64,000 nt of DNA from an uncultured Acidobacteriota bacterium (GCA_963772255.1 CAVYWK010000022.1:65388-129387), one strand, 5' to 3'; positions 31,310 through 56,234 are shown, numbered from the stretch's first letter. Numbers and translations are program-made. Notes: generated by a model from the letters alone, not told the origin.

Positions 31310-31385
31310 CCCTTCCAGCGCCAAGAGCATGGGCTCCTCCAGGGCCTGGCAGACCCACCGGAGAAAGCGCGCGCCGTTGGCGCCG
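31310..31385 (-). pseudogene. orphan copy of the last ~25 codons of aceF (E2): ..GANGARFLRWVCQALEEPMLLALEG-stop
   Basis: It matches 36877-36952 (the real aceF 3' end) at 74/76 nt: one D->N change and one silent change, plus TAG instead of TGA just outside the aligned block. No upstream E2 sequence is attached. Confidence 0.85.
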
Positions 31386-31469
31386 GCCGGTCCAAGGCTT
31401 CAACGATAGCACGGGTCTCCCCGAGCCTCTCTTCCTTCACCCTGCGCTATACTGGCAAGTGAGGGTGCC

Positions 31470-32627
31470 ATGACCGTACCGGCCCGCGTCGACAGAGACA
31501 CCGACCCCGCCCTGTGGGCACTGCGCGAGCGAGTCAAGGAGCTCACCTGCCTCTATGGTATTGCCCAGATTGTGGACAGGACGGACATCTCCATGCAGGA
31601 GGTGGCCGAGCGCGTGGCTTCCCTCCTGCCTCCGGCCTGGCAGTATCCAGAATGCACCTGTGCCAGGGTGACTCTCAACGGCGAAGCCTTCCCATCCAAG
31701 CCCTTCCAAGAGAGCACTCAGCGCCTCGCTGCGGCGGTCGTGGTCGCCGATCACGCTCTTGGGCAAGTCGAGGTCTTTTACTCGGAAATCCGGCCGGCAG
31801 CGGACGAAGGCCCCTTTCTCAAGGAGGAGCGAAGCCTCATCAACGAAGTGGCCCGGCAGTTGTCCCTCATGGTGGAACGCCGCCAGGTGATGGAAGAAAA
31901 TATCCGGCTCGAGGATCAGCTCAGACACGCGGACCGGCTGGCCACCATCGGCCGACTTGCCGCCGGTGTAGCCCACGAACTCAACGAACCCCTTGGTGCC
32001 ATCCTTGGGTTTGCCCAGCTTACCCAAAGCAATTTCGGCATACCCGACCAGACGGCTCGGGACCTGGACAAGATCGTGAAGGCCTCGTTGAGGGCCAGGG
32101 AAATCGTCAAGAGACTGTTGATCTTCGCGCGCCAGACGCCCGCCCAGCGAGTACCCGTCGACCTCACCATGGTCGTGAAGGAGGGCATCTATCTTTTGAG
32201 GGCAAGGTGCGCTAAGGCGGGGATCTCCATCAAGCTGCATTTGGCGGCGGACCTCCCGGCCGTAGAAGGCGATGCGAACCTGTTGCAACAAGTGATCGTG
32301 AATCTGGCCGTGAACAGTATCCAGTCCATGCCCGGCGGAGGTGTGCTGGACATTACCGCCGGGGTGCATGAAGAATCCGTCGTGCTGAAAATCGAAGATT
32401 CCGGGGAGGGGATGACGGAGGAGGTGATGCGCCACGTGTTCACCCCCTTTTACACCACCAAGGATGTGGGTCAAGGAACCGGGCTCGGCCTTTCGGTCGT
32501 TCACGGCATCGTGACTTCGCACGGGGGACGGATCGAACTGGAAAGCGCCGTTGGAAAGGGAACGCGGGTAAGTATTCTCCTGCCTCGTGCGCATGAACCG
32601 GTCTGCGAAAAGAGGAGATCTCCATGA
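31470..32627 (+). CDS. sensor histidine kinase (cytoplasmic sensor domain + HisKA + HATPase_c)
   Basis: 385 aa. H-box AAGVAHELNEPL, N-box VNLAVNSIQSM, G-boxes DSGEGM and GTGLGLS. Confidence 0.85.
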   Translation: MTVPARVDRDTDPALWALRERVKELTCLYGIAQIVDRTDISMQEVAERVASLLPPAWQYPECTCARVTLNGEAFPSKPFQESTQRLAAAVVVADHALGQVEVFYSEIRPAADEGPFLKEERSLINEVARQLSLMVERRQVMEENIRLEDQLRHADRLATIGRLAAGVAHELNEPLGAILGFAQLTQSNFGIPDQTARDLDKIVKASLRAREIVKRLLIFARQTPAQRVPVDLTMVVKEGIYLLRARCAKAGISIKLHLAADLPAVEGDANLLQQVIVNLAVNSIQSMPGGGVLDITAGVHEESVVLKIEDSGEGMTEEVMRHVFTPFYTTKDVGQGTGLGLSVVHGIVTSHGGRIELESAVGKGTRVSILLPRAHEPVCEKRRSP

Positions 32628-33880
32628 CGGCTGTCCAGCGGACCGCGCGAATTCTCCTTGTCGACGATTCGCCGGACACCCTGGAAGTGTTGGAGCGGAA
32701 TCTGGCCAAGCACGGATTTACGGTCATGACCGCGCTGGATGCGCGGGAGGCCATGGCCATTCTTGAGCGAAGCTCCGTGGATCTGCTCATTACCGACGTG
32801 CGGATGCCGGGAATGAACGGTCTGGAACTTCTTCGCCACGTCCGGGAAACGTTTCCCGATACGCAAGTCATGCTGATCACCGGCTACGCCACCATCGAGG
32901 GTGCCGTAGAAGCGATGAAAACGGGCGCCGAAGAATACCTCTCCAAGCCGTTCACAACGGAGGAGCTTCTCGCCGCCGTGGGCCGGGTGCTCGAGAAACT
33001 CCGTACGATCCGCTCACGAAGGGCGGGAAGGTCCCCCGATCATTGGGGACTGGTCGGATCGTCCGAGGTCATGAGGCTCCTGTTTGACGCCGCGGATCGG
33101 GCCGCCCCGTCGCACACTCCCTTGCTCATGTTGGGGGAGGATGGGACCGGGCGGGAGAGCCTCGCGCGTGCGCTTTGTAATGCTGGCCCCCGCGCCGATC
33201 AGCCCTTTCTGGTCTTGAACGGGGAGACGACTCCCCCGGATACGCAGGGCAGGGAAATTGAGCACGGCCTAACTTTCACCCAAGGAGGCACACTGTTTCT
33301 CCGGGCTATTGAGTGCTGGTCGCCCGAGCTGGTGGAAGGGGTCGCTAAGCGTGCCGCAGATACCGCGCCTGGCTGCCGGTTCATGGTCTGTGCGGGATCG
33401 CAATTCCGGTTTCTGGTGGAACGCGGCGCCCTGCCCGGACAGATGGGCCCGCTCCTCAGCTGGGAGACCCTTCGGCTGCCTCCTCTGCGAGAGCGCGGGA
33501 TGGATGTCCTCCTGCTTGCCGAGAGCTTCGCACGGTCCATTGCAACAAACTGCGGCCTCAGGGTACCTGGGATGACGCCGCTTTTCCGTCAGGCGCTCCT
33601 GGCCTACCCCTGGCCCGGCAATGTGAGGGAACTCCGATCTGCGATCTCGGCAGCGGTTCGGGATGGCGCTTCCGATCCGCTGGATCTTCCGGATCTGCCC
33701 TCCACGATCAGGTCATGGAGCCCTTCCGGCGCGCCCGCGACGCGCCCGCTGGGCGAGGTGGAAGCGGAGTATATCCGCGTGGTATTGTCGAGCGTGCAAG
33801 GCAACAAGAGCCGCGCCGCCGAGATCCTCGGCATCGACCGCAAGACCCTCCGCGAAAAACTAAAGTCGGATACATCCTAG
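32624..33880 (+). CDS. NtrC-family response regulator (REC + degenerate AAA+ sigma54-interaction domain + Fis-type HTH)
   Basis: 418 aa. REC domain: ILLVDDSPD..DLLITDVRMPGMNG. Central domain: GEDGTGRE, GGTLFLRAIE, PGNVRELRSAI. C-terminal HTH: GNKSRAAEILGIDRKTLREKLK. Its ATG overlaps the kinase stop. Confidence 0.85.
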   Translation: MTAVQRTARILLVDDSPDTLEVLERNLAKHGFTVMTALDAREAMAILERSSVDLLITDVRMPGMNGLELLRHVRETFPDTQVMLITGYATIEGAVEAMKTGAEEYLSKPFTTEELLAAVGRVLEKLRTIRSRRAGRSPDHWGLVGSSEVMRLLFDAADRAAPSHTPLLMLGEDGTGRESLARALCNAGPRADQPFLVLNGETTPPDTQGREIEHGLTFTQGGTLFLRAIECWSPELVEGVAKRAADTAPGCRFMVCAGSQFRFLVERGALPGQMGPLLSWETLRLPPLRERGMDVLLLAESFARSIATNCGLRVPGMTPLFRQALLAYPWPGNVRELRSAISAAVRDGASDPLDLPDLPSTIRSWSPSGAPATRPLGEVEAEYIRVVLSSVQGNKSRAAEILGIDRKTLREKLKSDTS

Positions 33881-33990
33881 GAACCCAAAGAAAACTCTTG
33901 ACCGCAAAGGACGCTAAGGGCACGAAGAAGAAAGGAACACCTTTGGGCGTCCTTTGCGCTCTTCGCGGTTCGATGTTGCCTTCAGAACTC

Positions 33991-35148
33991 TTAGAAAATG
34001 ACCAGCAGGTTCAGGGCCGCGGTGAACTGGCGGTCCGTGAACCCTCCGCCCTTCTGGAACACGGGCCGATTGGACCAGTCCTGGCGGAAATCGGCGCGCA
34101 CGAGCAAATGCCCGCCGATTTTGTAGGACGGGGTGAGCGTGATCTCTTCAAGGCGCTGCGGCGTGCCCGTTCTCGCCCCGTCGCAATCGTCGAGGCGTTC
34201 CGCGCGCAAGGCCAAACCGAATCGGTCCGTAAACCCGTACACCGCGTACAACGCGGCGCCATACCATCGCGCGCTCGCCCCCGATGCCAAGGCGCCCCGC
34301 TCGTACCCGTCGTCCACGTTGAGTCCGAGGGTCAGCGCGTTCGTGGCTTTCCACGTGGCGCAGAAGTCGATCACGTTTCGCCAATTGGAGTTGTTGCTGT
34401 CCTGCTCGGGGCCACCGATGTAGTTCAGGGTCAAGGCGAGCGGGTCGACGGGTGTCACCACTACCTGTGCGCCGATGGTCTTCCCCGTGTTGTTGTCGCA
34501 GACATTGTCCCAGCCCTGCACGACCATGACGGAGCCCGAGACCTGGTCGGAGAAGGGGTAGGAGATCCTCAGACCTGTATTGGTGAAGGGGGCTGAGAAA
34601 CCGAAGAGGAAGGAGCGGCTGAAGTTGTCGTTGTAGGCATCGTAGCGGTCGATGGACTCGTACCCCACCGGCGCAAAGAACTTGCCAAGGTCAAAGCGTA
34701 GCCCGCGGCCGGCTTTGGCGACGTAGCTCACGTAGGCCTGCTCTATATCGAAGTGGCTCGCCTCGCCCGTCTCCACGTTCCTGAACAGACCGCTCGCCGC
34801 CGTGATCTCCGGCAGGGACTGCCCTCCGGCGAGATCCATGCGGAACCCGAATTCCCCCTGGGAGGCCGCGGCCTTCTGGACGGCGAGAGACAGCACATCG
34901 AGTTTCGCCGCATCGCTCTCGAAGTCGAAGATCCTGTAGCCATTGAGATCCGAATCGGGGTGGTTGTCGTTGTAGGTGTAGGAAAGGGAGGCGAAGAGAT
35001 CCACCTGGATTTTCTTGGTCCAGGGTCCGCTTTCGTCAGGCTTGAGGAGCGCCTGGGATCGGGCGGACAGGGGGGCGGCCAGCGCCGCCACCCCTGCCAG
35101 AACCCAGATGGCCGCCCGCCTAGCGGAGCTAAGGCTGGGAGGAGTCAT
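33991..35148 (-). CDS. outer-membrane beta-barrel porin (type commonly found next to amtB)
   Basis: 385 aa with a signal peptide, alternating amphipathic strands rich in Y/G/D/N, and a terminal ..NLLVIF (C-terminal Phe signature). It lies 3 nt downstream of amtB. Confidence 0.7.
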   Translation of the reverse strand: MTPPSLSSARRAAIWVLAGVAALAAPLSARSQALLKPDESGPWTKKIQVDLFASLSYTYNDNHPDSDLNGYRIFDFESDAAKLDVLSLAVQKAAASQGEFGFRMDLAGGQSLPEITAASGLFRNVETGEASHFDIEQAYVSYVAKAGRGLRFDLGKFFAPVGYESIDRYDAYNDNFSRSFLFGFSAPFTNTGLRISYPFSDQVSGSVMVVQGWDNVCDNNTGKTIGAQVVVTPVDPLALTLNYIGGPEQDSNNSNWRNVIDFCATWKATNALTLGLNVDDGYERGALASGASARWYGAALYAVYGFTDRFGLALRAERLDDCDGARTGTPQRLEEITLTPSYKIGGHLLVRADFRQDWSNRPVFQKGGGFTDRQFTAALNLLVIF

Positions 35149-35151
35149 GGC

Positions 35152-36399
35152 TCAGACGCCCTCTAGGTAGGCCTGTTCGCCATGTAGTCCCTCGTCCAAT
35201 CCCACCGTTTCGTGGGCTTCCTCAACCCTGACCTTCGTGATCTTGTTGATAACCCAGAGCATGGCCAGGGTGAAAACGAAAGCCCATATCGAGGAGAAAA
35301 CAACGGCCCACAACTCCACCAAGAAGAAATGGACGTTGCCCCTGAGCAGGCCGTCCACGCCGCCCGACGAGGCTGGATTAAATGCCGTGGTCGCGAAGAT
35401 GCCACACAGCACGATGCCCAGGAATCCGCCCACTCCGTGGACGCCCCAGACATCCAATGCATCGTCCCACTCCAACTTGTTTTTTAGGGCTACGGCATAG
35501 AAACAGACCACGCCCGCGATGATACCGATGAGGGCGGCGGTGGTGGGCGAGACGTAGCCCGCGGCCGGAGTGATGGTGGCCAGGCCCGCCACGGCGCCCG
35601 TGAGGAGGCCGAGAAACTTGGGCTTCTTGGAGGTCATCCAGTCCATCACCAACCACGCGATGGCGGCGAAGGAAGCGGAGATGTCCGTGTTGAGGAAGGC
35701 CACCGCCGTAACCGAGTCCACGCGAAACTCCGAACCGGCGTTGAACCCGTACCACCCGAACCACAGCAGTCCCGTCCCCAGGGCCACGAGGGGGATGCTG
35801 TGCGGCCCGCGGTCGAGGACCTTGCGCTTGCCCACATAGAGGATGGAGGCGAGGGCGGCGATGCCCGCGATGTTATGCACCACGATGCCGCCCGCAAAGT
35901 CCTTCACTCCCCAAGCGGCCATGATGCCGCCGCCCCACACCATATGGACGAAGGGGAAATAGACGAACAGCAGCCAACCCGTGAGGAAGAGCATATAGGC
36001 CTTGAATGTGACTCGGTTGGTGAAGGCCCCCGTGATGAGGGCCGGCGTGATGATGGCGAACATCATCTGGTAGGCGCAGAAGACGATCATGGGAATGGTG
36101 TCATTGGGAGAGGGCATATCGAGGGTAATGCCCCGAAGAAAGGCCCAGTGGAAATTCCCGACGATCCCGGCGAAGTCAGTTCCGCTCTGCAGGTCGCCCG
36201 AGAAGCACATGGAGAACCCCACGGCCCACCAGAGGACCGTCGTCCAACCCATGGAGACGAAGCTCTGGATCATGATGGCGAGCACGTTCTTCCGGCCCAC
36301 CAGCCCCCCGTAGAAAAACGCCAGCCCGGGGGTCATGAGCATGACCAGGCTGGAGCACAACAACATGAACGCGGTATTTCCCGTGTCGAGATGGAGCAT
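35152..36399 (-). CDS. amtB: ammonium transporter
   Basis: 415 aa, Amt/MEP family throughout (DTGNTAFMLLCSSLVMLMTPGLAFFYGG .. DFAGGIVVHNIAGIAALA .. WGVHGVGGFLG). Confidence 0.9.
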   Translation of the reverse strand: MLHLDTGNTAFMLLCSSLVMLMTPGLAFFYGGLVGRKNVLAIMIQSFVSMGWTTVLWWAVGFSMCFSGDLQSGTDFAGIVGNFHWAFLRGITLDMPSPNDTIPMIVFCAYQMMFAIITPALITGAFTNRVTFKAYMLFLTGWLLFVYFPFVHMVWGGGIMAAWGVKDFAGGIVVHNIAGIAALASILYVGKRKVLDRGPHSIPLVALGTGLLWFGWYGFNAGSEFRVDSVTAVAFLNTDISASFAAIAWLVMDWMTSKKPKFLGLLTGAVAGLATITPAAGYVSPTTAALIGIIAGVVCFYAVALKNKLEWDDALDVWGVHGVGGFLGIVLCGIFATTAFNPASSGGVDGLLRGNVHFFLVELWAVVFSSIWAFVFTLAMLWVINKITKVRVEEAHETVGLDEGLHGEQAYLEGV

Positions 36400-36873
36400 C
36401 GTCCCCCCCTTTCATTCCGTTTTCCCGGGGCACGCCCCGGACCCAACCTGCCCCTCGGTCATCAGGCACCGGTGGGCGAACACCGAAAATGCGGGGGCTT
36501 TCTCCCCACAATACGATTCAAGATGCTCCGGACTCGTAGGGTTGAGAAGTCGTGCGGAAAAGACACGACAAAATAGGGCGATATACCCCGATTAGTGGGT
36601 ATTATTTCCTCAGGTAGCCAGGTGGGAGGTTTGCATTTTGGGCACGGCTTCTAGCAGGAGCCACGGGCTTTGGCTCCGTGTTCCGGAGCACTGCCGCGGA
36701 CGGAGCGCAGTCCAGCCAGTTCACCCGGACAAAGTCACCGCGGGAAGGGGTGCGCTCCACCCCTCAACGAGTCGCCTCCTGCTTTTCCGAGGCAGGAGGC
36801 CGGGGTTCTTCACGGGTCCCCTGCTCACCAACTCTCCTACTCACCTGCGTTCCTTAATCTCAATCCCCAACGT

Positions 36874-38211
36874 TCACCCTTCCAGCGCCAAGAGCATGGG
36901 CTCCTCAAGGGCCTGGCAGACCCACCGGAGAAAGCGCGCGCCGTCGGCGCCGTCGATGAGGCGGTGGTCGTAGGAGAGGGAGAGGGGCAGGATCGTGCGC
37001 GGCTGGAATTGGCCCTCCCTCCAGACCGGCTGAATCTCGGACCGCGACACGCCCAGGATGGCCACCTGGGGCCAGTAGACGATGGGCGAGAACCCCACGC
37101 CCCCGATGCCGCCGAGGTTCGAGAGCGTAAAGGTGCCACCCTCCATGTCCTCGGGCGAAATGCGCTTCGTCCTGGCCTTTTCGGCGAGGGCGGCGATCTC
37201 CGCGGAGAGCGCGGTGATGTTCTTTTTGTCCGCGTCGCGCACCACGGGAACGAGGAGGCCTCGGTCCGTGTCCACGGCCACGCCCAGGTTCACGAACTCC
37301 TTGAAGACGATCTCGCCGTGCTCCACATCCAAGCTCGCGTTGAACTGCGGGAAGGCCCTGAGCGCGCCCGCCAGGACCTTCACGAGGATGGCCGTCATGG
37401 TGAGTTTGCCGCCCGCCGCTTCGACCCTCTTGGCGTGCTTGGCCCGGAAAACCTCCAGGTCGGTGATGTCGGCCTTGTCGTACTGGGTGACCGTGGGCAC
37501 GGTGGCCCAGGCGTGGGCCATGCTCTCGGCGGTGATCCTGCGCACCTTGCTCATGGCCTCCCGGCGAACCGGGCCAAACCGGGCGGGATCGGGCAAGGCC
37601 TTGGACGGGACGGCGGCCCCGGGCACCGCGGGCACCCCCGCGCCCATGACGAGCTTGGCGTGGATCTTCACATCGTCCGCCGAGACGCGCCCTCGCGGGC
37701 CCGTCCCCGTGACCTGGGTGATGTCCACGCCGAGTTCCCGGGCGAGCCTGCGCACCGACGGCGCCGCCGGCGTGGAGGGCTTGGGCATGGAGGCATCCGG
37801 GCCGGCCATGGGCCTGGCGGGTTGAACGGCGGGTGGCGGGGTGGCGCGTGCCGGGCGCGAGGGCTCGGGAGCTGGTGACGGGTTCGGAGGAGGATTGTTT
37901 GGGAGCGGCGCGGGAGCCGCAGTGGCCTTGGCGGCGGCGGGCGCGGCGGGCGTGGCTGCCCCGGCCTCAGCGCCCGCGGCTTCCACCCGCACCACGACCT
38001 GCCCCACCTTGATGCTCGTTCCCTTCTGGGCCAGCACCTCCACCACGGTCCCCGCCTCGGTGGATGGCATCTCGAAGACGGCCTTGTCGGTCTCCAGCTC
38101 CAGGAGGGGCTGGTCCAGGACCACCGCGTCGCCCACTTTGACGAGCACTTTCACCACGTCCGCGGCGTTGGTGCTCTCCGACAGTTCGGGAAGCTTGATG
38201 TCTTTGATCAT
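36874..38211 (-). CDS. aceF: dihydrolipoamide acetyltransferase, E2 of the pyruvate dehydrogenase complex
   Basis: 445 aa. It has a lipoyl domain (LELETDKAVFEMPS), an Ala/Pro linker, a subunit-binding domain (PSVRRLARELGVD) and a catalytic domain (SLSYDHRLIDGADGARFL). Confidence 0.9.
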   Translation of the reverse strand: MIKDIKLPELSESTNAADVVKVLVKVGDAVVLDQPLLELETDKAVFEMPSTEAGTVVEVLAQKGTSIKVGQVVVRVEAAGAEAGAATPAAPAAAKATAAPAPLPNNPPPNPSPAPEPSRPARATPPPAVQPARPMAGPDASMPKPSTPAAPSVRRLARELGVDITQVTGTGPRGRVSADDVKIHAKLVMGAGVPAVPGAAVPSKALPDPARFGPVRREAMSKVRRITAESMAHAWATVPTVTQYDKADITDLEVFRAKHAKRVEAAGGKLTMTAILVKVLAGALRAFPQFNASLDVEHGEIVFKEFVNLGVAVDTDRGLLVPVVRDADKKNITALSAEIAALAEKARTKRISPEDMEGGTFTLSNLGGIGGVGFSPIVYWPQVAILGVSRSEIQPVWREGQFQPRTILPLSLSYDHRLIDGADGARFLRWVCQALEEPMLLALEG

Positions 38212-38224
38212 TTAAACCCCTTTT

Positions 38225-38431
38225 CGGGAGCGGGGAGCGGGGAGCGGGAGCGGGAAAAGCAGGAGGCGAAGAAGTGGCAAAAGCTGCTCCGTGTGTCCCT
38301 TCAGCTCCCCGCTCCCTGCTCCCGGCTTCCGCCCTTTTTTCGTAAGCGGTGAGCAGTGAGCGGAATAAGATAAAGACGATGCTTCGCGTTCATTCTCGGC
38401 TCCCTGCTCCCCGCTCCCTGCTCCCGGCTTC
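38225..38431. repeat. aceE-aceF intercistronic repeat cluster: GGGAGCG x4 arm, two GCTCCCY arms, and a GTGAGCR array
   Basis: Arms: gggagcggggagcggggagcgggagcggg (38226-38254), cagctccccgctccctgctcccggcttcc (38302-38330), gtaagcggtgagcagtgagcgg (38342-38363), ggctccctgctccccgctccctgctcccggcttc (38398-38431). Confidence 0.85.
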
Positions 38432-41123
38432 ACGAAAACACCGGGTTGGGCTTCTCGGGCGGAATCCCCAACTCTTCCATGGCGCGTTTCACGGTACCCT
38501 CGTCCACTTCGCCCCGCCGGGCGAGCTGGTGGAGGGCCGCCAGGGCGATGAACCGGGCGTCCACCTCGAAGAAGTCCCGGAGGGCGGCGCGGTTGTCGCT
38601 CCGTCCGAAGCCGTCGGTCCCCAGCGCGTGCAGCGGCCCGGGGAACCACTTGGCCACGCCCAGGGGCAGGACCTTGAGATAGTCGCTCGCCGCCACGAAC
38701 ACGCCCGACTCGCCCGCCAGGGCCTTGGCCACGAAGGGCTCCTGCCGGGGCTCCCCGGGGTGGAGGGCGTTCCAGCGCTCCGCGTCGGCGGCGTCGCGGT
38801 AGAGCTCCTTGTAGCTCGTCACGCTCCAGACGTCGGCGGAAACGCCGAAGCGTTCGGCCAGGAGCGCCTGGGCTTTGACGGCCTCGTTGAGGATGGTGCC
38901 GCTTCCGAGCAGGTGCGCCTTGGGACCCTTCGCCGCTGAGGCGCTGAACTTGTACATCCCCCGGAGGATCCCGTCCTCCGTGGAGAAGGGGTGCCCCGCG
39001 GGAGCCGCCGGCATGGGCGGCTGGGCGTAGAACTCGTTCATGACGGTGATGTAGTAGAACGCGTTCTCCTGGTTCACGCACATGCGGCGGATGCCGTCGC
39101 GGATGATCACCGCCAGCTCGTAGCCGTAGGCCGGATCGTAGGCCCGCAGGTTGGGGACGGTGAGCGCCAGGGCGTGGCTGTTGCCGTCCTGGTGCTGGAG
39201 GCCCTCGCCCGCGAGGGTCGTCCTGCCCGCCGTGCCGCCCAGGAGGAAGCCGCGCGCCCGCATGTCCCCCGCGGCCCAGATCAGGTCGCCGATGCGCTGG
39301 AAACCGAACATGGAGTAGAAGATGAAGAAGGGGATCGTGTGGAGACCGTGGGTGGCGTAGGCCGTGGCGGCCGCCACGAAGGAGGACATGGCGCCCGCCT
39401 CGGTGATGCCCTCCTCCAGGATGGCCCCGTCCTTGGCCTCCTTGTAGTAGAGGAGGATGTCCTTGTCCACCGGGTCGTAGAGCTGTCCCGGGTGGGCGTA
39501 GATACCCACCTGGCGGAAGAGGCTCTCCATGCCGAAGGTGCGCGCCTCGTCGGGCACGATGGGGACGATGAGCTTGCCCAGGTTCGGGTCCTTCAGGAGC
39601 TTGGCGAGGAGGTGGACGAAGACCATGGTGGTGGCCACCTCGCGGCCGCCGCTCCCCTCGTAGAACTCCTGGTAAATCTCGTCCGGTGGGGCCTCGATGG
39701 GGTCCACGGCGGTGGTCCGGCGGGGCACGAAGCCGCCCAGCTGACGCCGTTTTTCGAGCAGGTATTTCATCTCCTCGCTGCCCTCGGGCGGCCGGTAGAA
39801 GGGCACCTCGTTCAGGTCCTCGTCGGAGACGGGGATGCCGAAGCGGCTGCGGAACTCCCTCAGCTCCTGCTCGTTGAGCTTCTTCTGCTGGTGGGTGATG
39901 TTCTTGCCCTCGCCCGCCTCGCCCAGGCCGTAGCCCTTGATGGTCTGCGCCAGGACCACCGTGGGCGAGCCCCGGTGCTCCACGGCGGCCTTGTAGGCCG
40001 CGTAGACCTTCTCCGGGTCGTGTCCACCCCGGCGCATCTTGCGGATCTGCTCGTCCGAGTAGTTCTCCACCATGGCGAGCAGCTCGGGAGACTTGCCGAA
40101 GACATCCTGGCGGATGTAAGCCCCGTCCGAGACGGTGTAGCGCTGCATCTGCCCGTCCACGAGCTCGCCCAGCCGCCGCGCCAGGAGCCCGTCCGCGTCC
40201 TTCTCCAGGAGGGGGTCCCAGTCGTCGCCCCAGAGGACTTTGAGCACGTTCCACCCCGCGCCCCGGAAGGCCGCCTCCAGCTCCTGGACGATCTTGCCGT
40301 TGCCGCGCACGGGGCCGTCGAGGCGCTGGAGGTTGCAGTTCACCACGAAGATGAGGTGCTCGAGCTGCTCCCGGGAGGCCAGCGTGATGGCGCCCAGGCT
40401 TTCGGGCTCGTCCATCTCGCCGTCGCCCATGAAGGCCCACACCTTCTGGTCCGAAGCGGGCTTGAGACCCCGATCCACGAGGTACTGGTTGAAGCGCGCC
40501 TGGTAGATGGCCATGATGCTCGTGAGGCCCATGGACACCGTGGGGAACTCCCAGAAGTCGGGCATGAGGTAGGGGTGCGGGTAGGAGGAGAGGCCTCCCC
40601 CGGGCTGGAGCTCCCGCCGGAAGCGCCGCAGGTCCGCCTCGCTCAGGCGCCCCTCTAAAAAGGCTCGCGCATAGATGCCGGGCGACGCGTGGCCCTGGAA
40701 GTAGACGATGTCACCCTCCCGGCCCTCCGTCTTCCCCCTGAAAAAGTGGTTGAAGCCCACTTCCAGAAGTGTCGCCGCCGAAGCGTAGGTGGAGATATGC
40801 CCGCCGATGCCGTGGTCCTCCCGGTTGGCCCGCACCACCATGGCCATGGCGTTCCATCTCAGGATGCTCTTGATGCGGCGCTCGATCTCCCGGTTGCCCG
40901 GAAAGGGCGGCTGGAGGTCCCGCGGGATCGTGTTCAGGTAGGGCGTGTTGGCCGTGAAGTGGGGACGGACGCCGTAGTGCGATGCGCGGATATGGAGGTG
41001 CCACAGGAGCTCCCGCACCCGCTCGGGGCCCTGCTCCTGGAACACGTCGTCCAGCGACTGCACCCACTCCCGGTTCTCGATTTCCTTCGCCACCCCCGGC
41101 TGCGGTTTCTTGGTTTCGCTCAT
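38430..41123 (-). CDS. aceE: pyruvate dehydrogenase E1 component, homodimeric type
   Basis: 897 aa, AceE-like end to end (GGHISTYASAATL, GDGEMDEPES, transketolase-like C-terminal half). Confidence 0.92.
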   Translation of the reverse strand: MSETKKPQPGVAKEIENREWVQSLDDVFQEQGPERVRELLWHLHIRASHYGVRPHFTANTPYLNTIPRDLQPPFPGNREIERRIKSILRWNAMAMVVRANREDHGIGGHISTYASAATLLEVGFNHFFRGKTEGREGDIVYFQGHASPGIYARAFLEGRLSEADLRRFRRELQPGGGLSSYPHPYLMPDFWEFPTVSMGLTSIMAIYQARFNQYLVDRGLKPASDQKVWAFMGDGEMDEPESLGAITLASREQLEHLIFVVNCNLQRLDGPVRGNGKIVQELEAAFRGAGWNVLKVLWGDDWDPLLEKDADGLLARRLGELVDGQMQRYTVSDGAYIRQDVFGKSPELLAMVENYSDEQIRKMRRGGHDPEKVYAAYKAAVEHRGSPTVVLAQTIKGYGLGEAGEGKNITHQQKKLNEQELREFRSRFGIPVSDEDLNEVPFYRPPEGSEEMKYLLEKRRQLGGFVPRRTTAVDPIEAPPDEIYQEFYEGSGGREVATTMVFVHLLAKLLKDPNLGKLIVPIVPDEARTFGMESLFRQVGIYAHPGQLYDPVDKDILLYYKEAKDGAILEEGITEAGAMSSFVAAATAYATHGLHTIPFFIFYSMFGFQRIGDLIWAAGDMRARGFLLGGTAGRTTLAGEGLQHQDGNSHALALTVPNLRAYDPAYGYELAVIIRDGIRRMCVNQENAFYYITVMNEFYAQPPMPAAPAGHPFSTEDGILRGMYKFSASAAKGPKAHLLGSGTILNEAVKAQALLAERFGVSADVWSVTSYKELYRDAADAERWNALHPGEPRQEPFVAKALAGESGVFVAASDYLKVLPLGVAKWFPGPLHALGTDGFGRSDNRAALRDFFEVDARFIALAALHQLARRGEVDEGTVKRAMEELGIPPEKPNPVFS

Positions 41124-41350
41124 AGATTTCCCCTCGCGACTGAGCCGTCCTTCAATTGTTTTTAATTATACTCTCATGAGAAGAGTCAACGCCCTGGGAC
41201 ACCCCTCCAATTCCACCCCGGCGGCACTCCCAGGGCGCCTTAGCAAATGGTTTTCCGCCCGCCCTCGTGGTTCCTCGGGATATCGGGCTCGCGGGGTCAT
41301 GGGGTTGGGGATTTGCTTTTACCCCATCCCCCCATTTCCCTACCTCCCCC

Positions 41351-41475
41351 TCTATCTCTCCGGTACCACCTTGTACCCGTACGCGACGACGCCGGACTCC
41401 CCGGCCTCCTAATCTTGCGGATCTCCAGAGCGACTTTGAGGCCGATGGCCAGGCGCTCGGGCTCGCAGTCGGCGA
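41351..41475 (-). pseudogene. orphan, frameshifted copy of the last ~40 codons of the DUF35 gene
   Basis: It aligns to 43441-43566. The inner 38 nt are identical. The outer ~88 nt carry 13 substitutions (mostly silent or conservative) plus a 1-nt deletion. With the deletion repaired it reads DCEPERLAIGLKVALEIRKI.EAGESGVVAYGYKVVPER-stop. Confidence 0.85.
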
Positions 41476-41610
41476 AAGGCTTGAACCTTTTCCGCGGGGT
41501 GGTAGCATGGCCGCACATCGGGTGACATCGTCTGGAGAGGTTTCGGGGGGCCGTCAATCTGAGATGTGGGCGTTACAAAGAACAGGGACAAGATCAGAGG
41601 GGAGGGACCG

Positions 41611-43284
41611 ATGGAACATCCTGTATGGGATACCGTGAACAAGGCTTTCAGGTGGACGGCTCTAGGCAGCCTGCTGGCGGCGGCCACGATCCTGTGCGCC
41701 GCTCAGGGGGCGGCCCCGGGCAAGGCGGAAGCGGCGCCAAAGGCGGCAAAGAAACCCAACATCGTGGTCATCATGACCGACGACGTGGGCTGGGGCGACC
41801 TGGGATGCTACGGCGGCGGGGAGACCCGCGGGGCGCCGACCCCCCATCTGGACCGCATGGCCGCGGAGGGCATGCGCTTCACCAACTACTACGGCCAGGC
41901 GAGCTGCACCGCTGGACGGGCGTCCTTCATCACGGGGCGCATCCCCCTGCGGACGGCCCTGTCCGTCGTGCTGGCCCCCGGCGACCTGAATGGGATCAGG
42001 GCGGAGGACCCCACCGTGGCCGAGGCCATGAAGCAGCTCGGCTACCGCACGGTGCAGTTCGGCAAGTGGCACCTGGGCGACCGGCCGGACACCTTCCCCA
42101 CCGCGCACGGGTTCGACGAGATGCACCACATGCTGCCCTACTACGCCGGGGTCTACGCCTACGACCACCTGGCCCTCCAGCCCGATTTCCCCATCCACAA
42201 CAAAAAGATGATGGCGATGTGGGAGAGCTACAACCGCAGCGAATGGTCGGGGAAGGCGGGGCAGCCCCCGGAGGTCACCAAGAAGAGGTTCGGCTACGAC
42301 GATCTGGCCACCGCCGACGACATCATGCGTGCCGATGCGATCCAGTACATCCAGGCGCACGCCAAGGACGATCAACCCTTCTTCATGTACCTCTGCTTCA
42401 TGAAGGTGCACAACCCCAACAACCCGTCGCCGCGCTTCAAGGGAAAATCCCCCGGCGGCGGCAACTATCTCGATGCCCTGATGGAGCTGGATGACAACTC
42501 GGGTCAGGTCCTTCAGGCGATCCGCGATGCGGGCATCGGGGAGGACACCCTGGTCGTCTGGACCACGGACAACGGCGCGTGGATCGACGCGTGGCCCGAC
42601 GCCGGCTACACGCCCTTCCGCGGCACGAAGGGAACGAGCTTCGAGGGCGGCTTCCGGGTGCCGGCCATCGTCTGGTGGCCCGGCCACGTGAAGCCGGGCA
42701 CCGTCGCCAACGGCATGATGTGTCACATGGACTGGTGGCCCACCTTCGTGAAGCTGGCCGGCGGCACGCCGCCGACCCACATCTGGAAGGACAACAACGG
42801 CAAGGGCATCGTCTTCGACGGCATCGAGAACAGCGACTACGTTCTGGGCAACGGGCCCTCGAACCGGGACCATTTCTTCTACATCAACGACCTGTCCTTC
42901 GGCGGCGTCAGGGTCGAGAACTTCAAGATGCTGTTCACCTCCAAGGACACTTGGCTGGGACCCGAGCTCAACCTGGATTTCCCGGCGGTCTACAACCTCT
43001 ACTGGGATCCGGGCGAGCAGTACGACATGATGTTCCGAGGTGCGGCTCCCACCCGGGGCGACCTGCGGACCTCTCCCGGCCGGTACTCGGGAGAGGACCA
43101 CGGCTGGATGAGCATCGTCATCGGGCCCTACACGAGCCAGTTCTTTGGTGAGCTCGCGAAGTATCCCAACCGGCCCACCATCCCCTCGGCGGGGTCCATG
43201 GATCAGTTGGCACGTGCGGTGAACGATCCGCCGGAGCTCATGCGCCTATTGGAAATTCATCCACCCGAGCCACAGGGGAAGTAG
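41611..43284 (+). CDS. arylsulfatase (formylglycine-dependent sulfatase family)
   Basis: It has a signal peptide, PNIVVIMTDDVGWGDLG, and the CTAGRASFITGR (C-x-A-x-R) FGly motif. ATG 41611 has GGGGAGGG upstream. The ORF track starts at 41566. Confidence 0.85.
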   Translation: MEHPVWDTVNKAFRWTALGSLLAAATILCAAQGAAPGKAEAAPKAAKKPNIVVIMTDDVGWGDLGCYGGGETRGAPTPHLDRMAAEGMRFTNYYGQASCTAGRASFITGRIPLRTALSVVLAPGDLNGIRAEDPTVAEAMKQLGYRTVQFGKWHLGDRPDTFPTAHGFDEMHHMLPYYAGVYAYDHLALQPDFPIHNKKMMAMWESYNRSEWSGKAGQPPEVTKKRFGYDDLATADDIMRADAIQYIQAHAKDDQPFFMYLCFMKVHNPNNPSPRFKGKSPGGGNYLDALMELDDNSGQVLQAIRDAGIGEDTLVVWTTDNGAWIDAWPDAGYTPFRGTKGTSFEGGFRVPAIVWWPGHVKPGTVANGMMCHMDWWPTFVKLAGGTPPTHIWKDNNGKGIVFDGIENSDYVLGNGPSNRDHFFYINDLSFGGVRVENFKMLFTSKDTWLGPELNLDFPAVYNLYWDPGEQYDMMFRGAAPTRGDLRTSPGRYSGEDHGWMSIVIGPYTSQFFGELAKYPNRPTIPSAGSMDQLARAVNDPPELMRLLEIHPPEPQGK

Positions 43285-43440: not shown

Positions 43441-43441
43441 T

Positions 43442-43837: not shown

Positions 43838-44994
43838 CACAGCACCTCCAGGATGTGGACGACGGCGCTGCCGCCGGAACCGCCCATGTTCTGGGCGAGG
43901 CCGCGGCGCACGTTCTTGAGCTGGCGCTTGCCGGCCTCGCCGCGGAGCTGGGTGACGATCTCGTGGATCTGGGCGATGCCCGTGGCGCCCACGGGGTGCC
44001 CCTTGGACTTGAGGCCGCCGGAGGGGTTCACGGGGTACTTGCCGTCGCGCGCCGTGAAGCCTTCGCGCGTGGCCTTGCCGCCCTGGCCCTTCTTCACGAC
44101 GCCCAGGGCTTCGAGCACGCAGATCTCGGCGATGGTGAAGCAGTCGTGGACCTCGGCGAAGTCGATGTCCAGGGGTTTCACGCCGGCCATCTTGTAGGCG
44201 CGGGCGGCGGCGTCGGCGGTGGACCTGAGCCAGGTCATGTCGGCGCGCTGGTGGAGGGCGATGGTGTCCGTGGCGTGGGCCGATGCGGCGATCTTGACGA
44301 GGGGTTTCTTCTTGAGCTTTTTGGCCATCTCCAGGGGGCAGATGATGACCGCCGCCGCGCCGTCCGTAATAGGCGAGCAGTCCAGGATGTTGAGGGGATC
44401 GGCCACCTTCACGCTGTTGATGACCTGGTCCACCGTGATCTTCATGCGGTACTGGGCGTGGGGGTTGAGCAGGCCGTTGTCGTGATTCTTCACGGCCACC
44501 TGGGCCAGGTCTTCCCGCTTGGTGCCGTACTTGTGCATGTGGGCGGTGGCCATGAGGGCGTAGAGCCCCGGGAAGGTGGCGCCGTGGAAGGCCTCGTAGT
44601 CCTGGTCCGCGGCCGTGGCCAGGGCGTAGGTGGCCTGGGCGCCGCTCACGTCGGTCATCTTCTCCACGCCGCCGCACAGGACGATGTCATGCATTCCCGA
44701 GGCGACGTAGGCGATGCCCGTCCTCAAGGCCATGCCGCCGGAGGCGCAGGCCGATTCCACGCGCACGCCGGGGATGGGCGCCTGGCCGAGGTAGTCCGCG
44801 AGCAGGGAGCCGATGTGCTCCTGGCCGGCGAAGAGCCCCGGGCTCATGCAGCCCGCCACGAGGCCGTCGATGTGGTCCACGCCGGCGTCGTCCATGGCCT
44901 CCAGGGCCGCCTTCACGAATAGGTCCCTCAGGGAGTCGTTCCAGAGCTCCCCGAAGTCCGTCATGCCGATGCCGATGATGGCGATGTCGCGCAT
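43837..44994 (-). CDS. archaeal-type acetyl-CoA C-acetyltransferase (thiolase)
   Basis: 385 aa: [16 protein letters not shown].., the active-site Cys context VESACASGG, and C-terminal [15 protein letters not shown]. Confidence 0.9.
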
Positions 44995-44998: not shown

Positions 44999-46051
44999 TC
45001 AGTCCTCCACGTTCTTCCGGATCTTGCGGCGGAATTTCACGTACGTGCCGTAGTCCAGATAGAAGGGGTTGTTGTCGAGATAGTCCCGGGTCTTTTTCGC
45101 CTTGCCCTGGACCTTGGGAAGGGCCTTGGTGGCGGTGAAGATGAAGCCGTCCGAACCCGCGCCCGAGCCGAAGGAGCACATGAGGATGGCGTCGCCCGGC
45201 TTGGCCTCGTCCAGGATGGCCGAGAGGCCCAGGGGCGAGGCGCCCGAGTAGGTGTTGCCCAGCGTCGGCACGAGCAGGCCCGTCTTCACCTGGTCCTCGG
45301 TGAAGCCCAGGTCCTTGGCCATGCGCACGGGGAACTTGCCGTTGGGCTGGTGGAAGACGATGTACTTGAAGTCCTTGGGCTTGGCGCCCGCCTTCTTGAG
45401 GAGGCCCTCCACGCCGCCGCGCACGTGTTTGAAGTAGGCCATGTCGCCCGTGAAGCGGCCCGCGTGGCGCGGGTAGTGCATGTACTCCCGGCGCCAGAAA
45501 TCGGGGGTGTCGCTCATGTAGGAGAACTGGCAGTCCAGGCTGGCCACCACGTTCGTCTTGCCCATGATGAAGGCCGCGCCGCCCGCCGCCGCCGAGTACT
45601 CCAGCGCGTCTCCGGGCGCTCCCTGGGAGGTGTCCGAGCCGATGCCGAGGGCGTACTCCACCTCGCCCGACTTGACCAGGCCGAAGGCCAGGAACATGCC
45701 CTCCGAACCGGCCTTGCACGCGAAGGAGAGATCCGCGCAGTGGCAGTCGTTCACGGCCCCGAGGACCTCCGCCACGGCCGTGCCCGAAGGCTTCACGGCG
45801 TAGGGGTGCGACTCGGAACCCACGTAGATCGCCCCGATCTTGGCGGCGTCGATGCCCGCCCGGCGGAGGGCGTTCTTGGCCGCCTCCACCGAGATGGTGA
45901 TGGTGTCCTGGTCCGGACCGGGGACCGATTTTTCTCTCAGCATCAGACCCTTTTTGTAGCTGGGCGCATCCGCTCCCCAGACCTTGGCGATCTCCTCCAC
46001 CTTGATCCGGTAGCGGGGAATGTACGCCCCGTATCCCACGATTCCTACCAT
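44999..46051 (-). CDS. hydroxymethylglutaryl-CoA synthase, archaeal type
   Basis: Starts [22 protein letters not shown] (GAGGAGG upstream). It also has [22 protein letters not shown] and HQPNGKFP. Confidence 0.9.
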
Positions 46052-46292
46052 GAAGACCTCCTCAGTCGAGCGCTTGGCATGGCGAAACGAGAAAGAGGGT
46101 AATGTACTGGTTTTCTCGTGTGGAGGCAAGGCCGGAGGGTGGAGCAAACGGTCCTAAGCCGAGTCCCGTCCCCATTCTTGAAGGGAGGAATCGGGAGGGT
46201 GCGCCGTGTCCTGTCTTTGTTGCCTATGGACTCTGAGCGGGTCGCTCGAAGCCTCAATCTTCAGGGTGTTCGCGGTTCAGGGTGCCTTCCCC

Positions 46293-49308: not shown

Positions 49309-49436
49309 GCGATCCTCCTTGCCGTCTGGTCCCTCTCGGCGACCGCCCAAGGGCCGCCTCCACCCCGATATTTCCGGCACCGGGGTCGGGGTCACATCGG
49401 GCGGCTTTTCCCCCACCCCGCGATTCGGGGGTTAGC

Positions 49437-49764
49437 CCCCAATTCCGCGATTCGAGCAGGTCAAACGGGTTGAAGGCCTTGCTGGACATGAGCTTGATCA
49501 CCATGCCCCATTCACCAAGCAGGTGAATGGGGCGGTCTCCGAGCCGCATGCTTGCCGAGCAGAAAAGTCCCAAGGGCGGGGTGGGGTCCCCGGCGGGCTT
49601 CGCCCGCGGGGCGGGGAACCCGGAGGGCAACATCCCGGACCGTCTGGCTTCGCCAGCGGTTCGGGAAGTAAACGCATGGGCCCTCCCCGTCTCGGAGACC
49701 GAGCGGAATACACCCGGGACCACCCCTTTTTCCGAAGGCAGAAAATTCAATCGCGGAATTAGGC
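49437..49764 (-). mobile_element. MITE-like element, copy 2 (~328 bp), same family as 27810-28120
   Basis: It has terminal inverted repeats AATTCCGCGATTCGA (49441-49455) and TTCAATCGCGGAATT (49746-49760). The interior aligns with copy 1 in reverse orientation, including the near-terminal hairpin CCCCATTCACC..GGTGAATGGGG. Confidence 0.7.
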
Positions 49765-49813
49765 TTTGCCCCAAGCCTTGCCCCCGAGCGAGCGCCTCTG
49801 ACATAATGAACGC

Positions 49814-54013: not shown

Positions 54014-54142
54014 GGTTCCAGTGTAATACGACTCGCCCGCCGCGCGGGGCGGGGGCCTTTCACCCAATGTCTTGACGAGGCCCCCGTTCCTTGACAGTGG
54101 ACCGACGCGACCCCTATGCTGGGGTTCCCGGGGGAGGAGAGG

Positions 54143-54502
54143 ATGCCAGCCATTGAACCCGTCGTCCTGGTGCTCACGACCACAGGCTCGGAGGAGCAGG
54201 GCATCAACATCGCGGAGGCGCTTGTAGAGCGCGGCCAATCCGCATGCGTGAACATCGTCAAGAAGATCCGCTCCATCTACCGCTGGAAGGGCGAGATCTG
54301 GGACGATGAGGAATACCTTCTCGTCATCAAGACCCGGGAGAGCTGTTTCGCGCAGGTGCGGGAAACGATCCGCGAACTACACAGCTACGAACTTCCCGAA
54401 GTGCTGTGCGTCCCCGTGACGCTGGCCGATGAGAAGGTCCAGGCCTGGATCGTCGGTGCCACCGGCGGCCATCCCGCCCGCACCGAAAAAGCCGCCGAGT
54501 AA
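54143..54502 (+). CDS. cutA: divalent-cation tolerance protein CutA
   Basis: The pattern VVLVLTTTGSEEQGINIAEALVERGQSACVNIV..IRSIYRWKGEI..EEYLLVIKT..HSYELPEV is present. GGGGAGGAGAGG lies upstream of ATG 54143. Confidence 0.85.
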   Translation: MPAIEPVVLVLTTTGSEEQGINIAEALVERGQSACVNIVKKIRSIYRWKGEIWDDEEYLLVIKTRESCFAQVRETIRELHSYELPEVLCVPVTLADEKVQAWIVGATGGHPARTEKAAE

Positions 54503-54529
54503 TTTACGCGGATTCTTTAGAATGGACAG

Positions 54530-54563
54530 CGGGCCGGGAGAAAACTCCCGGCCCGTTTAGTCT
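54530..54563 (+). terminator. rho-independent terminator of cutA
   Basis: CGGGCCGGGAG aaaa CTCCCGGCCCG followed by TTTAGTCTT. Confidence 0.65.
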
Positions 54564-54612
54564 TCACCGTTCCTTATTCCCACCTACGTACCTACTCACC
54601 TACTCACGCCCT

Positions 54613-54654
54613 TCACACCGCTTCTACCGCCATGGCGACCCCATTTCCTCCCCC
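54613..54654 (-). pseudogene. displaced, diverged copy of the thiolase 3' end ([13 protein letters not shown]-stop)
   Basis: It differs from the in-gene copy (55051-55092, [13 protein letters not shown]-stop) at 12/42 nt. Six of the differences are silent third-position changes. It is followed by a period-8 array (CCTACTCA type, 54581-54610). Confidence 0.8.
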
Positions 54655-54829
54655 CAGGTCGCGCCTCACGCGCTCCCCCAGGGGGCCTCAGCCGGCCCCC
54701 TAGGGCGGGCCCTTCGTGCCCTGTGACCCCCTGCCCTCATGCGGGAAGCCCTTCGCTCGGGGGAACCTCCTCGTTCCCCCGCACCCCCTCGCCGCCTCGG
54801 CGGCAAATCGCCAAGGTCCGCCCGCTGAA
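54655..54829 (-). mobile_element. ~175-bp GC-rich structured element E' (distal copy)
   Basis: It is homologous to 54872-55050. The ~75 nt next to the gene-end copy are near-identical. The remaining ~100 nt are diverged but keep an 8-bp hairpin through a compensatory change. Confidence 0.7.
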
Positions 54830-55050
54830 CTACATCGATTCGATGGCCATGGCGACGCCGTTCCCGCCGCCCAGGCGTCGCGCGCAAGCACGCTCCCCCC
54901 AGGGGGGCTCTGCCGCCCCCCTAGGGCGGATGCTTCGCATCCTGTGACCCCGGGCCCTCCCGTCAGGAGACCTCTGCTCGGGGGAACCTCCTCGTTCCCC
55001 CGCACCCCCTCGCCGCCTCGGCGGCAAATCGCCAAGGTCTGCCCGCTGAA
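54830..55050 (-). mobile_element. second exact copy of the thiolase 3' end (54830-54871) plus ~179-bp structured element E (54872-55050)
   Basis: 54830-54871 is identical (42/42) to 55051-55092. E contains perfect hairpins GGGGGAAC-ctcctc-GTTCCCCC (54980-55001), AGGGGGGC-tctgcc-GCCCCCCT (54901-54922) and GGATGC-ttc-GCATCC (54928-54942). Confidence 0.75.
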
Positions 55051-56234
55051 CTACATCGATTCGATGGCCATGGCGACGCCGTTCCCGCCGCCGAGGCACA
55101 GGCTCACAATCCCCCTCCGGGCGCCCCGGTCCTTCATGGCGTAGAGGAGGGTGAGCAGGCAACGGGTGCCCGATGCGCCGATGGGGTGCCCCAGGGCCAC
55201 GGCACCGCCGTTCACGTTCACCTTTTCGGCGGGAGGCCCAGGACCTTGAGGAGGGCGCAGGACTGGGCTGCGAAGGCCTCGTTGAGCTCGAAGAGGTCCA
55301 CGCTTTTCAGGTCCCAGCCCGCCTTGGTTGCCGCGGCCCGCACGGCGGGTTCAGGGGTCATCATGACCCACCGGGGTTCGAGCCCAGAAGTGGCGTAGGC
55401 CACGATGCGCCCCAGCGGAGCCACGCCCTTCTTCTCCGCCACAGACGCCGTGGTCACCACCACCGCCGCCCCGCCGTCGTTGATTTGGCTCGCGTTCCCC
55501 GCGGTCACTACGCCGTCCTTCTTGAAGGCCGGGCGGAGCTTGGCCAGGCCCTCGAGGGAGACATCGGCGCGGATACCCTCGTCCGCGCGGAACTGGACGG
55601 GGTCCCCCTTCTTCTGCGGGATGGGCACGGCGAAGGTCTCCCCGTCGAACCTGCCCGCAGCCCACGCGGCGGCGGCCCGGCGGTGGCTCTCCACGGAATA
55701 GGCGTCCATCTCCTGGCGGGAGATCTGATGCTCGCCGGCCACGAGCTCGGCGGTGAGTCCCATGTGCTGGCCATCGTATGCGTCGGTGAGGCCGTCGGCC
55801 ACCAGGGAGTCGGTCACCTCCCCGTGTCCCAAGCGGAAGCCCGTGCGCCCCTGCCTCAGCAGGTAGGGCGCGTTGGACATGGACTCCATGCCGCCCGCCA
55901 GGATCAACGCCGCGTCTCCCGCCCTGATGGCCTGGGCCGCCAGCATGACCGCCTTGAGCCCCGAACCGCAGACCTTGTTCACGGTGAAGGCGGCCACCGA
56001 GACGGGCAAGCCGGCCTTGAGGGCCGCCTGCCGCGCCGGGTTCTGTCCCACTCCCGCCTGGAGGACGTTGCCCAGGATGACCTCTTCTACCTCTGCGGGA
56101 TCCACCTTGCCGCGCGAGAGGGCCTCCCGGACGGCCACCGAACCGATTTCAGGTGCGGTCATGGCCGCCAGCGGGCCCTGGAATTTGGCGATGCCCGTTC
56201 GGGCTCCTGCGAGAATGACGATGGGATCCGACAT
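55051..56234 (-). pseudogene. bacterial-type acetyl-CoA C-acetyltransferase (thiolase II), one frameshift near the 3' end
   Basis: Starts [20 protein letters not shown] (GGAGGA upstream) and has [14 protein letters not shown] 55218..56279 stops after ..GLPPKR. Adding one base at ~55227 restores ..[60 protein letters not shown]-stop (55051). Confidence 0.85.

Follow-up and report, generated by a model that had tools for sequence, protein, structure and literature searches.

Displaced gene 3' ends at three metabolic loci of an uncultured Acidobacteriota bacterium as possible scars of joined structural haplotypes

How does the terminal part of a housekeeping gene come to lie downstream of the intact gene, in the same orientation and without a promoter of its own? 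The question is raised three times within 24 kb of a 64-kb stretch of DNA from an uncultured Acidobacteriota bacterium (GCA_963772255.1, CAVYWK010000022.1:65388-129387), which was analysed at its full length and is called the window below. At all three loci (3/3), an intact gene is followed by intervening DNA and then by a promoter-less, same-orientation copy of that gene's 3' end, termed an orphan. The genes concerned are aceF (locus 1), a DUF35/ChsH2-like gene (locus 2) and the thiolase gene thl2 (locus 3). Based on sequence comparison with relatives, the favoured explanation, held with somewhat more confidence than doubt, is that each locus represents a recombination scar at which two structural variants of the same gene neighbourhood were linked in tandem rather than exchanged cleanly one for the other.

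Genes of the window, which has a G+C content of 62-70%, were picked by third-position G+C and a Pfam scan, covering ~47 open reading frames (ORFs) that span the 64 kb. Close relatives were obtained as metagenomic contigs via protein searches and contig look-ups, and the loci of close and more distant relatives are labelled L081-L095; six related metagenome lineages constitute the comparison set behind the revised interpretation presented here. The best named kin of these close relatives are Acidobacteriota metagenome-assembled genomes. A scan of GTDB genomes with aceE returned relatives of at most 69% amino acid (aa) identity, none of which carries DUF35 or HMGCS upstream and which are too distant to help, an exact look-up of the window aceF protein gave no match, and a metagenome scan with the porin of locus 1 identified just two loci.

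In a self-BLAST of the whole window, the top three direct repeats are the three loci (E-values of 1e-32, 5e-41 and 9e-73) and a repeat finder agrees, which confirms the succession of intact gene, insert and displaced 3' copy that an original prediction had described at three sites from the sequence. Locus 1 is centred on aceF, encoding the E2 component of pyruvate dehydrogenase (PDH), and comprises the following features:

38430-41123, minus strand: aceE (PDH E1), assigned by Pfam, 94-97% nucleotide identity to L081-L083
36874-38211, minus strand: aceF (PDH E2), intact, with Pfam domains 2-oxoacid_dh, Biotin_lipoyl and E3_binding
31386-36873, no strand: segment between the aceF repeats, containing Amt, BBP2 porin, response regulator (RR), histidine kinase (HK) and spacers
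35152-36399, minus strand: Amt, assigned by Pfam
33991-35148, minus strand: BBP2 porin, assigned by Pfam
32624-33880, plus strand: sigma54 response regulator (NtrC), assigned by Pfam, divergent, spanning 31470-33880 together with the HK gene
31470-32627, plus strand: HK, assigned by Pfam
31307-31385, minus strand: aceF orphan 3' end, last 25 codons and in-frame TAG
30916-31269, minus strand: cupin of 117 aa, Pfam Cupin_2, start placed according to 117-aa relatives

The aceF end at 36874-36952 (last 25 codons plus stop, minus strand) is repeated at 31307-31385, with 75/77 identical positions (97%). The copies are 5.5 kb apart and the orphan possesses its own in-frame TAG. It is bordered by GGACCGG at 31387-31393 and 31301-31307, and a GGGGAGC heptamer array (31277-31304) precedes the cupin gene. 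The 28-nt array that follows the orphan matches the array after the aceE stop codon at 27/28 positions.

Locus 2 joins the end of an HMGCS-thiolase-DUF35 operon to a sulfatase gene and an orphan DUF35 end:

44999-46147, minus strand: HMGCS, assigned by Pfam, first gene of the HMGCS-thiolase-DUF35 operon
43837-44994, minus strand: SCP-type thiolase, assigned by Pfam, between HMGCS and DUF35
43442-43837, minus strand: DUF35/ChsH2-like gene, intact, Pfam OB_ChsH2_C and zf-ChsH2, last gene of the HMGCS-thiolase-DUF35 operon
41566-43284, plus strand: sulfatase, Pfam Sulfatase, convergent with DUF35 and located between both DUF35 3' copies
41350-41475, minus strand: DUF35 orphan 3' end, last 41 codons and stop, with a 1-nt gap

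Here, the DUF35 end at 43440-43566 (last 41 codons plus 3 nt) recurs at 41350-41475 with 90% identity and one 1-nt gap, which may be a sequencing error. The two copies (126/127 nt) are 2.09 kb apart. The third locus, located between thl2 and CutA, is the most intricate:

55051-56279, minus strand: AtoB-type thiolase gene (thl2), Pfam Thiolase_N and Thiolase_C, with a 1-nt frameshift near 55222
55051-55095, minus strand: thl2 3' end copy 1 (true end)
54875-55050, minus strand: structured GC-rich element unit 1, 176 nt, recognised by its fold and related copies
54830-54874, minus strand: thl2 3' end copy 2, 44/45 identical to copy 1
54658-54829, minus strand: structured GC-rich element unit 2, 172 nt, 84% identical to unit 1
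54613-54657, minus strand: thl2 3' end copy 3, 32/45 identical to copy 1
54503-54612, no strand: L084-type spacer and terminator, contiguous with thl2 copy 3
54116-54502, plus strand: CutA, convergent with thl2

The last 14 codons plus stop of thl2 (45 nt) are thus present in three copies, which are separated by the two 172-176-nt elements, so that a 221-nt unit occurs twice with 84-89% identity. The original prediction had correctly recognised a displaced 3' end here; the locus proved more complex than its description.

At the three loci, the similarity between repeats stops at the stop codon or a few nucleotides past it. The duplication lengths differ (45, 77 and 126 nt) with no convincing common core sequence and, as had been proposed from the sequence, all are far longer than transposase target-site duplications. 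Equally in line with the first description, in which no insert encoded a recombinase, the ~47 ORFs of the window contain no recombinase or transposase Pfam domain; no inverted repeats were found at the borders of the duplicated loci, and Rfam and tRNA scans of the window gave no match. A count of orphan 3' against orphan 5' ends, which had been suggested for the genome, was carried out on the window alone by tblastn with the first and last 50 aa of the ~47 genes. It detected four orphan 3' ends and no orphan 5' end, numbers that are too small for significance, and a 3' bias is therefore statistically not established. The same search otherwise returned low-complexity noise alone, and one apparent 5' match between ThyX and a sigma-factor gene was rejected as out of frame.

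The manner in which orphans differ from intact ends provides the first indication of their origin. Differences by codon position 3/1/2 amount to 8/3/0 at locus 3 and 7/3/1 at locus 2, and the pooled ratio of 15:6:1 deviates from equal expectation (chi-square, p ~0.001). All replacements are conservative (I/V, S/A, M/V, F/I, A/V). A neutral orphan could not give such a ratio, and it follows that the copies diverged while both were coding. The silent-site divergence claimed for two displaced copies is accordingly found at loci 2 and 3, where the orphans look like alleles from different lineages that would have been united by recombination; at locus 1, there are too few differences to judge. The DUF35 orphan is 92% identical to the allele of L085 and 90% identical to the window's own gene. 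Additionally, the nucleotide identity to L081 changes between neighbouring genes across 23800-41130 (aceE 97-99%, aceF 90%, PQQ 88%, cyclase 94%, VTT 76%, MGMT 94%), a mosaic that, at the level of sequence, indicates frequent homologous exchange in the population.

The arrangement of the same neighbourhoods in relatives provides the second. For locus 3, L084 represents the empty site, in which the thl2 end leads into the sequence of window copy 3, a GTGAGTAG-type spacer, a terminator and CutA. In L085, the structured element replaces the usual spacer between thl2 and CutA, and no orphan is present. The window contains both in succession: thl2 with L085-type downstream DNA (twice), followed by the tail of a thl2 allele with L084-type downstream DNA. 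Copy 3 differs from its nearest sampled allele, that of L084, at 9/36 compared positions. The second 221-nt unit is most simply explained by a later event, either slippage or an unequal exchange involving the 45-nt copies. The elements themselves (window 54658-55050) belong to a family of dispersed GC-rich multi-hairpin intergenic repeats, with related copies after thl2 in L085 (702-833) and, inverted, at another locus in L088 (8708-8865). The minimum free energy of unit 1 is -102.7 kcal/mol (z = -3.6) and that of unit 2 is -100.6 kcal/mol (z = -4.0), and the changes in unit 2 relative to unit 1 preserve the hairpins. Compensatory changes affect 7/34 predicted pairs among four element copies, and a search of Rfam with the element gave no match.

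At locus 2, the sulfatase gene adjoins DUF35 in 3/3 close relatives (L084, L085 and L086) and is thus its native neighbour. L085 continues past the sulfatase gene into TetR and fatty-acid genes, and its similarity to the window ends ~20 nt before the orphan. The ~35 nt downstream of the DUF35 orphan match the spacer that follows DUF35 in L085, and the spacer after the intact DUF35 gene is of the L084 type. None of the relatives displays adjacency of DUF35 and aceE; in L087, both operons are found on one contig with other genes between them.

For locus 1, two arrangements circulate. In L081, L082 and L083 (aceF 85-90% aa identity), aceE, aceF, cupin and PQQ genes are directly adjacent and the Amt-porin-RR-HK cluster is absent; an 88-nt stretch of L081 aligns to both aceF-end copies of the window. 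The deep outgroup L087 also has aceF next to cupin. L091, L092 and L093 (aceF 76-78% aa identity) carry the whole cluster between aceF and cupin, and in L090 and L094 the cluster adjoins cupin on contigs that end before aceF. An aceF orphan, even a decayed one, was not detected in L090-L094, where alignment scores equal those of shuffled sequence. The cluster shares 74-87% identity with L091 and the flanks share 77-85%. Since its divergence from L091 equals that of the flanks, the 5.5-kb segment is an old conserved chromosomal cluster and not a recent foreign cassette. It had no phage match, and its plasmid matches were limited to the Amt gene. The window therefore looks like the cluster-bearing arrangement with an added piece (aceF tail, stop codon and GACCG) that resembles the cluster-less arrangement. 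The origin of the cluster-less relatives by deletion between the 77-nt repeats of a window-type genome was considered and rejected, since the DNA between their aceF and cupin genes is similar to what follows the intact aceF of the window and not to what follows the orphan.

These comparisons alter the original prediction in several respects. Its ancestral colinear string from HMGCS to cupin is retained for the aceF-cupin adjacency, as seen in L081-L083 and L087, and lacks support for DUF35-aceE, which no relative displays; the normal DUF35 neighbour in the close relatives is sulfatase. The notion of foreign cassettes that entered a pristine operon is contradicted by the cluster in L091-L093 and the sulfatase gene in L084-L086, both at matching positions and without an orphan, and the polarity proposed for locus 1 is probably reversed. 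No positive support was obtained for a trans-acting system directed at the targeting or repair of coding 3' termini: the lengths differ, a convincing core is lacking and the orphans look like alleles of other lineages. The other possibility raised at the time, three unrelated accidents, comes nearer the truth; the loci appear to represent three independent outcomes of one generic process.

Locus 1 presents some further peculiarities. The aceE-aceF spacer (38212-38429) contains an internal duplication of ~102 nt relative to L082 and L083, as well as GGGAGCG arrays in both orientations that are able to pair as a long hairpin. A left crossover was sought via sliding-window identity along aceE-aceF; the drop from 97-99% to ~90% at the spacer is inseparable from a difference in constraint. 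On the minus strand, the motif TGGCAC-N6-TTGC at 31455-31470, which shares bases with the HK start codon and is oriented in the direction of the orphan and cupin, resembles a sigma54 promoter whose spacing is one base off.

The joining of structural haplotypes is envisaged as follows. An uncultured Acidobacteriota-like lineage would form a recombining population in which structural variants of a neighbourhood circulate. First, a DNA tract would pair with the resident gene through homology. The tract would carry the gene's own 3' end together with a different downstream segment, and an illegitimate join would place its far end a few dozen bases before the resident stop codon. As a result, the gene would remain intact with the incoming 3' end, and a promoter-less orphan of the last 15-42 resident codons would persist, followed by the former downstream DNA. 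This outcome is known from three routes, namely homology-facilitated illegitimate recombination, Campbell-type single-crossover integration of a circularised fragment, or repair of a one-ended double-strand break in which the second end is captured non-homologously. The sequences show the architecture, the variant haplotypes of relatives and the allele-like divergence; both the route and the direction of recombination are inferred here, and an involvement of dedicated machinery is not supported. Similarity between copies would end at the stop codon because the haplotypes differ in the DNA that follows the gene, and a 3' bias would be expected because selection keeps only those joins that leave a complete gene. 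Alternative parental arrangements were found for locus 1 (L081-L083 versus L090-L094) and locus 3 (L084 versus L085), and only the sulfatase-bearing one for locus 2.

Several observations weigh against this explanation. As no relative has DUF35 directly upstream of aceE, one parental haplotype at locus 2 is hypothetical. The usual experimental outcome of homology-facilitated illegitimate recombination is a loss of recipient DNA and not its duplication. At locus 1, the orphan is followed by a spacer with the GGGGAGC array, which does not match the spacer with a GTGATCA-type array found between aceF and cupin in the sampled relatives without the cluster, and the 7-nt direct repeat that flanks the aceF orphan is fitted equally well by a templated insertion in situ, which for this locus is about as good an account as haplotype joining. 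Two of the three duplications begin with the same 10-of-11-nt motif. Finally, all four orphans are private to this genome, as no orphan of the three genes exists in the relatives' loci L081-L095; this privacy could reflect one complex recombination episode across the 24 kb.

The templated route extends beyond locus 1 as a rival for all three loci. In a process of the MMBIR/FoSTeS type (microhomology-mediated break-induced replication/fork stalling and template switching), a nascent strand would, in the course of replication or break repair, switch template at a microhomology and copy the gene 3' end or a nearby repeat into the adjacent spacer, and allele-like divergence would appear later, once a diverged allele had taken the place of the intact gene through ordinary homologous recombination. 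The 97% identity of the aceF orphan to a source 5.5 kb away, the GGACCGG on both of its sides and the 27/28 match of the following array to the post-aceE array are readily accommodated. The cluster-bearing relatives lack the orphan, which therefore reads as an insertion of ~80 nt in a conserved HK-cupin spacer. At locus 3, the 221-nt tandem is a local duplication, and the dispersed 176-nt repeat element could have been used as template. However, an extra allelic replacement would be needed at both loci 2 and 3 to obtain the 15:6:1 pattern. Moreover, the joining of two haplotypes predicts what is seen at thl2, where an L084-type spacer directly adjoins copy 3 and an L085-type element comes after copies 1 and 2, and the DUF35 orphan bears 35 nt of L085-type downstream spacer. 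Taken over the three loci, templated duplication in situ is considered rather unlikely.

Site-specific integration would require that the segments entered as, or together with, an integrative element whose attachment site overlaps gene 3' ends and whose recombinase acted in trans from another part of the genome. The architecture is like that of icd-e14-icdC, in which the intact gene extends into the insert and a C-terminal pseudogene lies at its far end (PMC13626634), and the similarity between copies ends at or near the stop codon, as this model would have it. In addition, the duplications of loci 1 and 2, but not that of locus 3, have CGCCGACNGCG at their 5' edge (rough post-hoc p ~0.01), a sequence that occurs four times in the window against 0.84 expected. 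This motif is, however, an in-frame Ala-Asp-Gly/Cys codon string and its position at two edges may thus be due to chance; repeat lengths and sequences vary by locus. Furthermore, no integrase, transposase or tRNA was found in the 64 kb, similarity to phages is absent and that to plasmids confined to Amt, and the cluster, the sulfatase gene and the 176-nt element occupy the same sites in relatives without flanking repeats. Integration of this kind appears quite improbable. A similarly low probability is assigned to the idea that, in this lineage, breaks or crossovers favour a position slightly inside the 3' end of genes, where repair with variant DNA would regenerate the terminus and leave the old one behind. 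This idea arises because of the CGCCGACNGCG-like edge at two of three duplications and because arrays of 7-8-nt units after many stop codons are possible fragile sites. If it were true, it would describe a semi-specific, recurrent route of gene-neighbourhood turnover and not three accidents.

The weakest candidate is an assembly artefact: where strains that co-exist in the metagenome vary in structure, a long-read assembler would have strung two of their haplotypes together. The orphans do occur in this assembly alone and single-base indels relative to all relatives (TT-to-T in thl2 at ~55222; an extra G at 26472, 26712, 27316 and 27530 in the FHA-GAF-cyclase gene 26118-27802) suggest error-prone long reads, but an independent Logan contig, L095 (1623 nt, run ERR12035932), matches 31348-32970 at 99.94%, crosses the left junction of the aceF orphan with the spacer and breaks inside the repeat, as expected of a real repeat. 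The two 221-nt units differ by hairpin-preserving substitutions and not by random errors, orphans and intact ends differ by 3-29%, with thl2 copy 3 differing from L084 as given above, and overlap and graph assemblers do not normally create internal duplications of 45-127 nt. An artefact is accordingly very improbable and the repeats are real; the indels, which interrupt the otherwise conserved thl2 and cyclase genes, are probably long-read homopolymer errors and not marks of pseudogenes.

By analogy, the most fitting category for the loci is that of a known type of 3'-end displacement scar, here in housekeeping genes. The closest parallels are the C-terminal displacements of Rhs, contact-dependent inhibition (CDI) and type VI secretion system (T6SS) loci, which likewise show a new 3' end, new DNA and the old 3' end as a promoter-less orphan, have no recombinase in cis and possess orphans that resemble the alleles of other strains. 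For the displacement of Rhs tips, a single crossover with a circular intermediate has been proposed (Jackson et al., 2009, PMC2935791), and T6SS effector-immunity arrays of the same architecture have been interpreted along similar lines (Kirchberger et al., 2017, PMC5361080); for this class of loci, homology-facilitated illegitimate recombination is the other mechanism put forward. In contrast to those polymorphic toxins, the genes studied here encode housekeeping enzymes (PDH E2, the DUF35 partner of HMG-CoA synthase and acetoacetyl-CoA thiolase) outside any toxin-tip or immunity context. Incoming and displaced ends encode near-identical peptides, so that nothing diversifies, no immunity gene is present and the orphans are very short (15-42 codons). 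Homology-facilitated illegitimate recombination, for which naturally transformable bacteria are the cited setting (de Vries and Wackernagel, 2002; Prudhomme et al., 2002; both as cited in PMC5361080), shares the single homologous anchor, the single illegitimate end and the addition of variant DNA beside a conserved gene; here, 45-126 nt of recipient DNA are kept as a duplication. The insertion of e14 or phage 21 in icd and of islands in tRNA 3' ends also duplicates a gene 3' end, with the element-proximal copy completing the gene, and icdC is a distal C-terminal pseudogene with mainly silent differences (PMC13626634). Those elements carry an integrase and are clearly mobile, whereas ordinary chromosomal DNA without an integrase lies between the copies described here. 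Transposon target-site duplications and those of miniature inverted-repeat transposable elements (MITEs) resemble the loci in that direct repeats flank inserted DNA, yet they measure 2-15 nt, as opposed to 45-127 nt of diverged sequence without terminal inverted repeats, and the genuine MITE family of this genome behaves differently from the three loci.

The loci demonstrate that ordinary metabolic genes, here of an uncultured lineage from soil or sediment, also display the orphan-tail architecture of toxin loci and prophage attachment sites. Scars of this kind could mark neighbourhoods that exist as alternative haplotypes in the wild population, and sites where one-ended or illegitimate recombination added DNA rather than replacing it. 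Orphans can also mislead gene callers, as illustrated by the extension of the cupin ORF over the aceF orphan, and the inference of ancestral operons, given that the apparent insert is here older than the apparent ancestral string.

Apart from the three loci, the window contains further repeats and variable blocks. A cytochrome c-Fer4-NrfD block at 19050-21966, with a second NrfD paralogue, is absent from L081 and partly present in L090, and no duplicated gene end was found at its borders. Tandem arrays of 7-8-nt units (GGGGAGC, GTGAGTAG, CTTTGCTT, GAATGTG and others) fill many spacers, at 3543-3567, 9486-9598, 23713-23814, 24717-24797, 25111-25310, 31277-31302, 36800-36870, 38226-38429, 43345-43437 and 54581-54607, and often begin at most ~15 nt from a stop codon. 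Close relatives vary in unit type and copy number, as exemplified by the GTGATCA-type array after aceF in L081-L083, and the arrays recall the cyanobacterial STRR (short tandemly repeated repetitive) sequences and the TAACTGA repeats of Beggiatoaceae (PMC4679880). In addition, a MITE-like element of ~300 nt with the terminal inverted repeats CCCAATTCCGCGATT and AATCGCGGAATTAGG is present at 49401-49774 and, inverted, at 27803-28212. Copies in relatives are located at 1028-1240 in L084, 5705-5915 in L086 and 17967-18044 in L087, and since the insertion sites differ between the window and these relatives, the family has recently been mobile.

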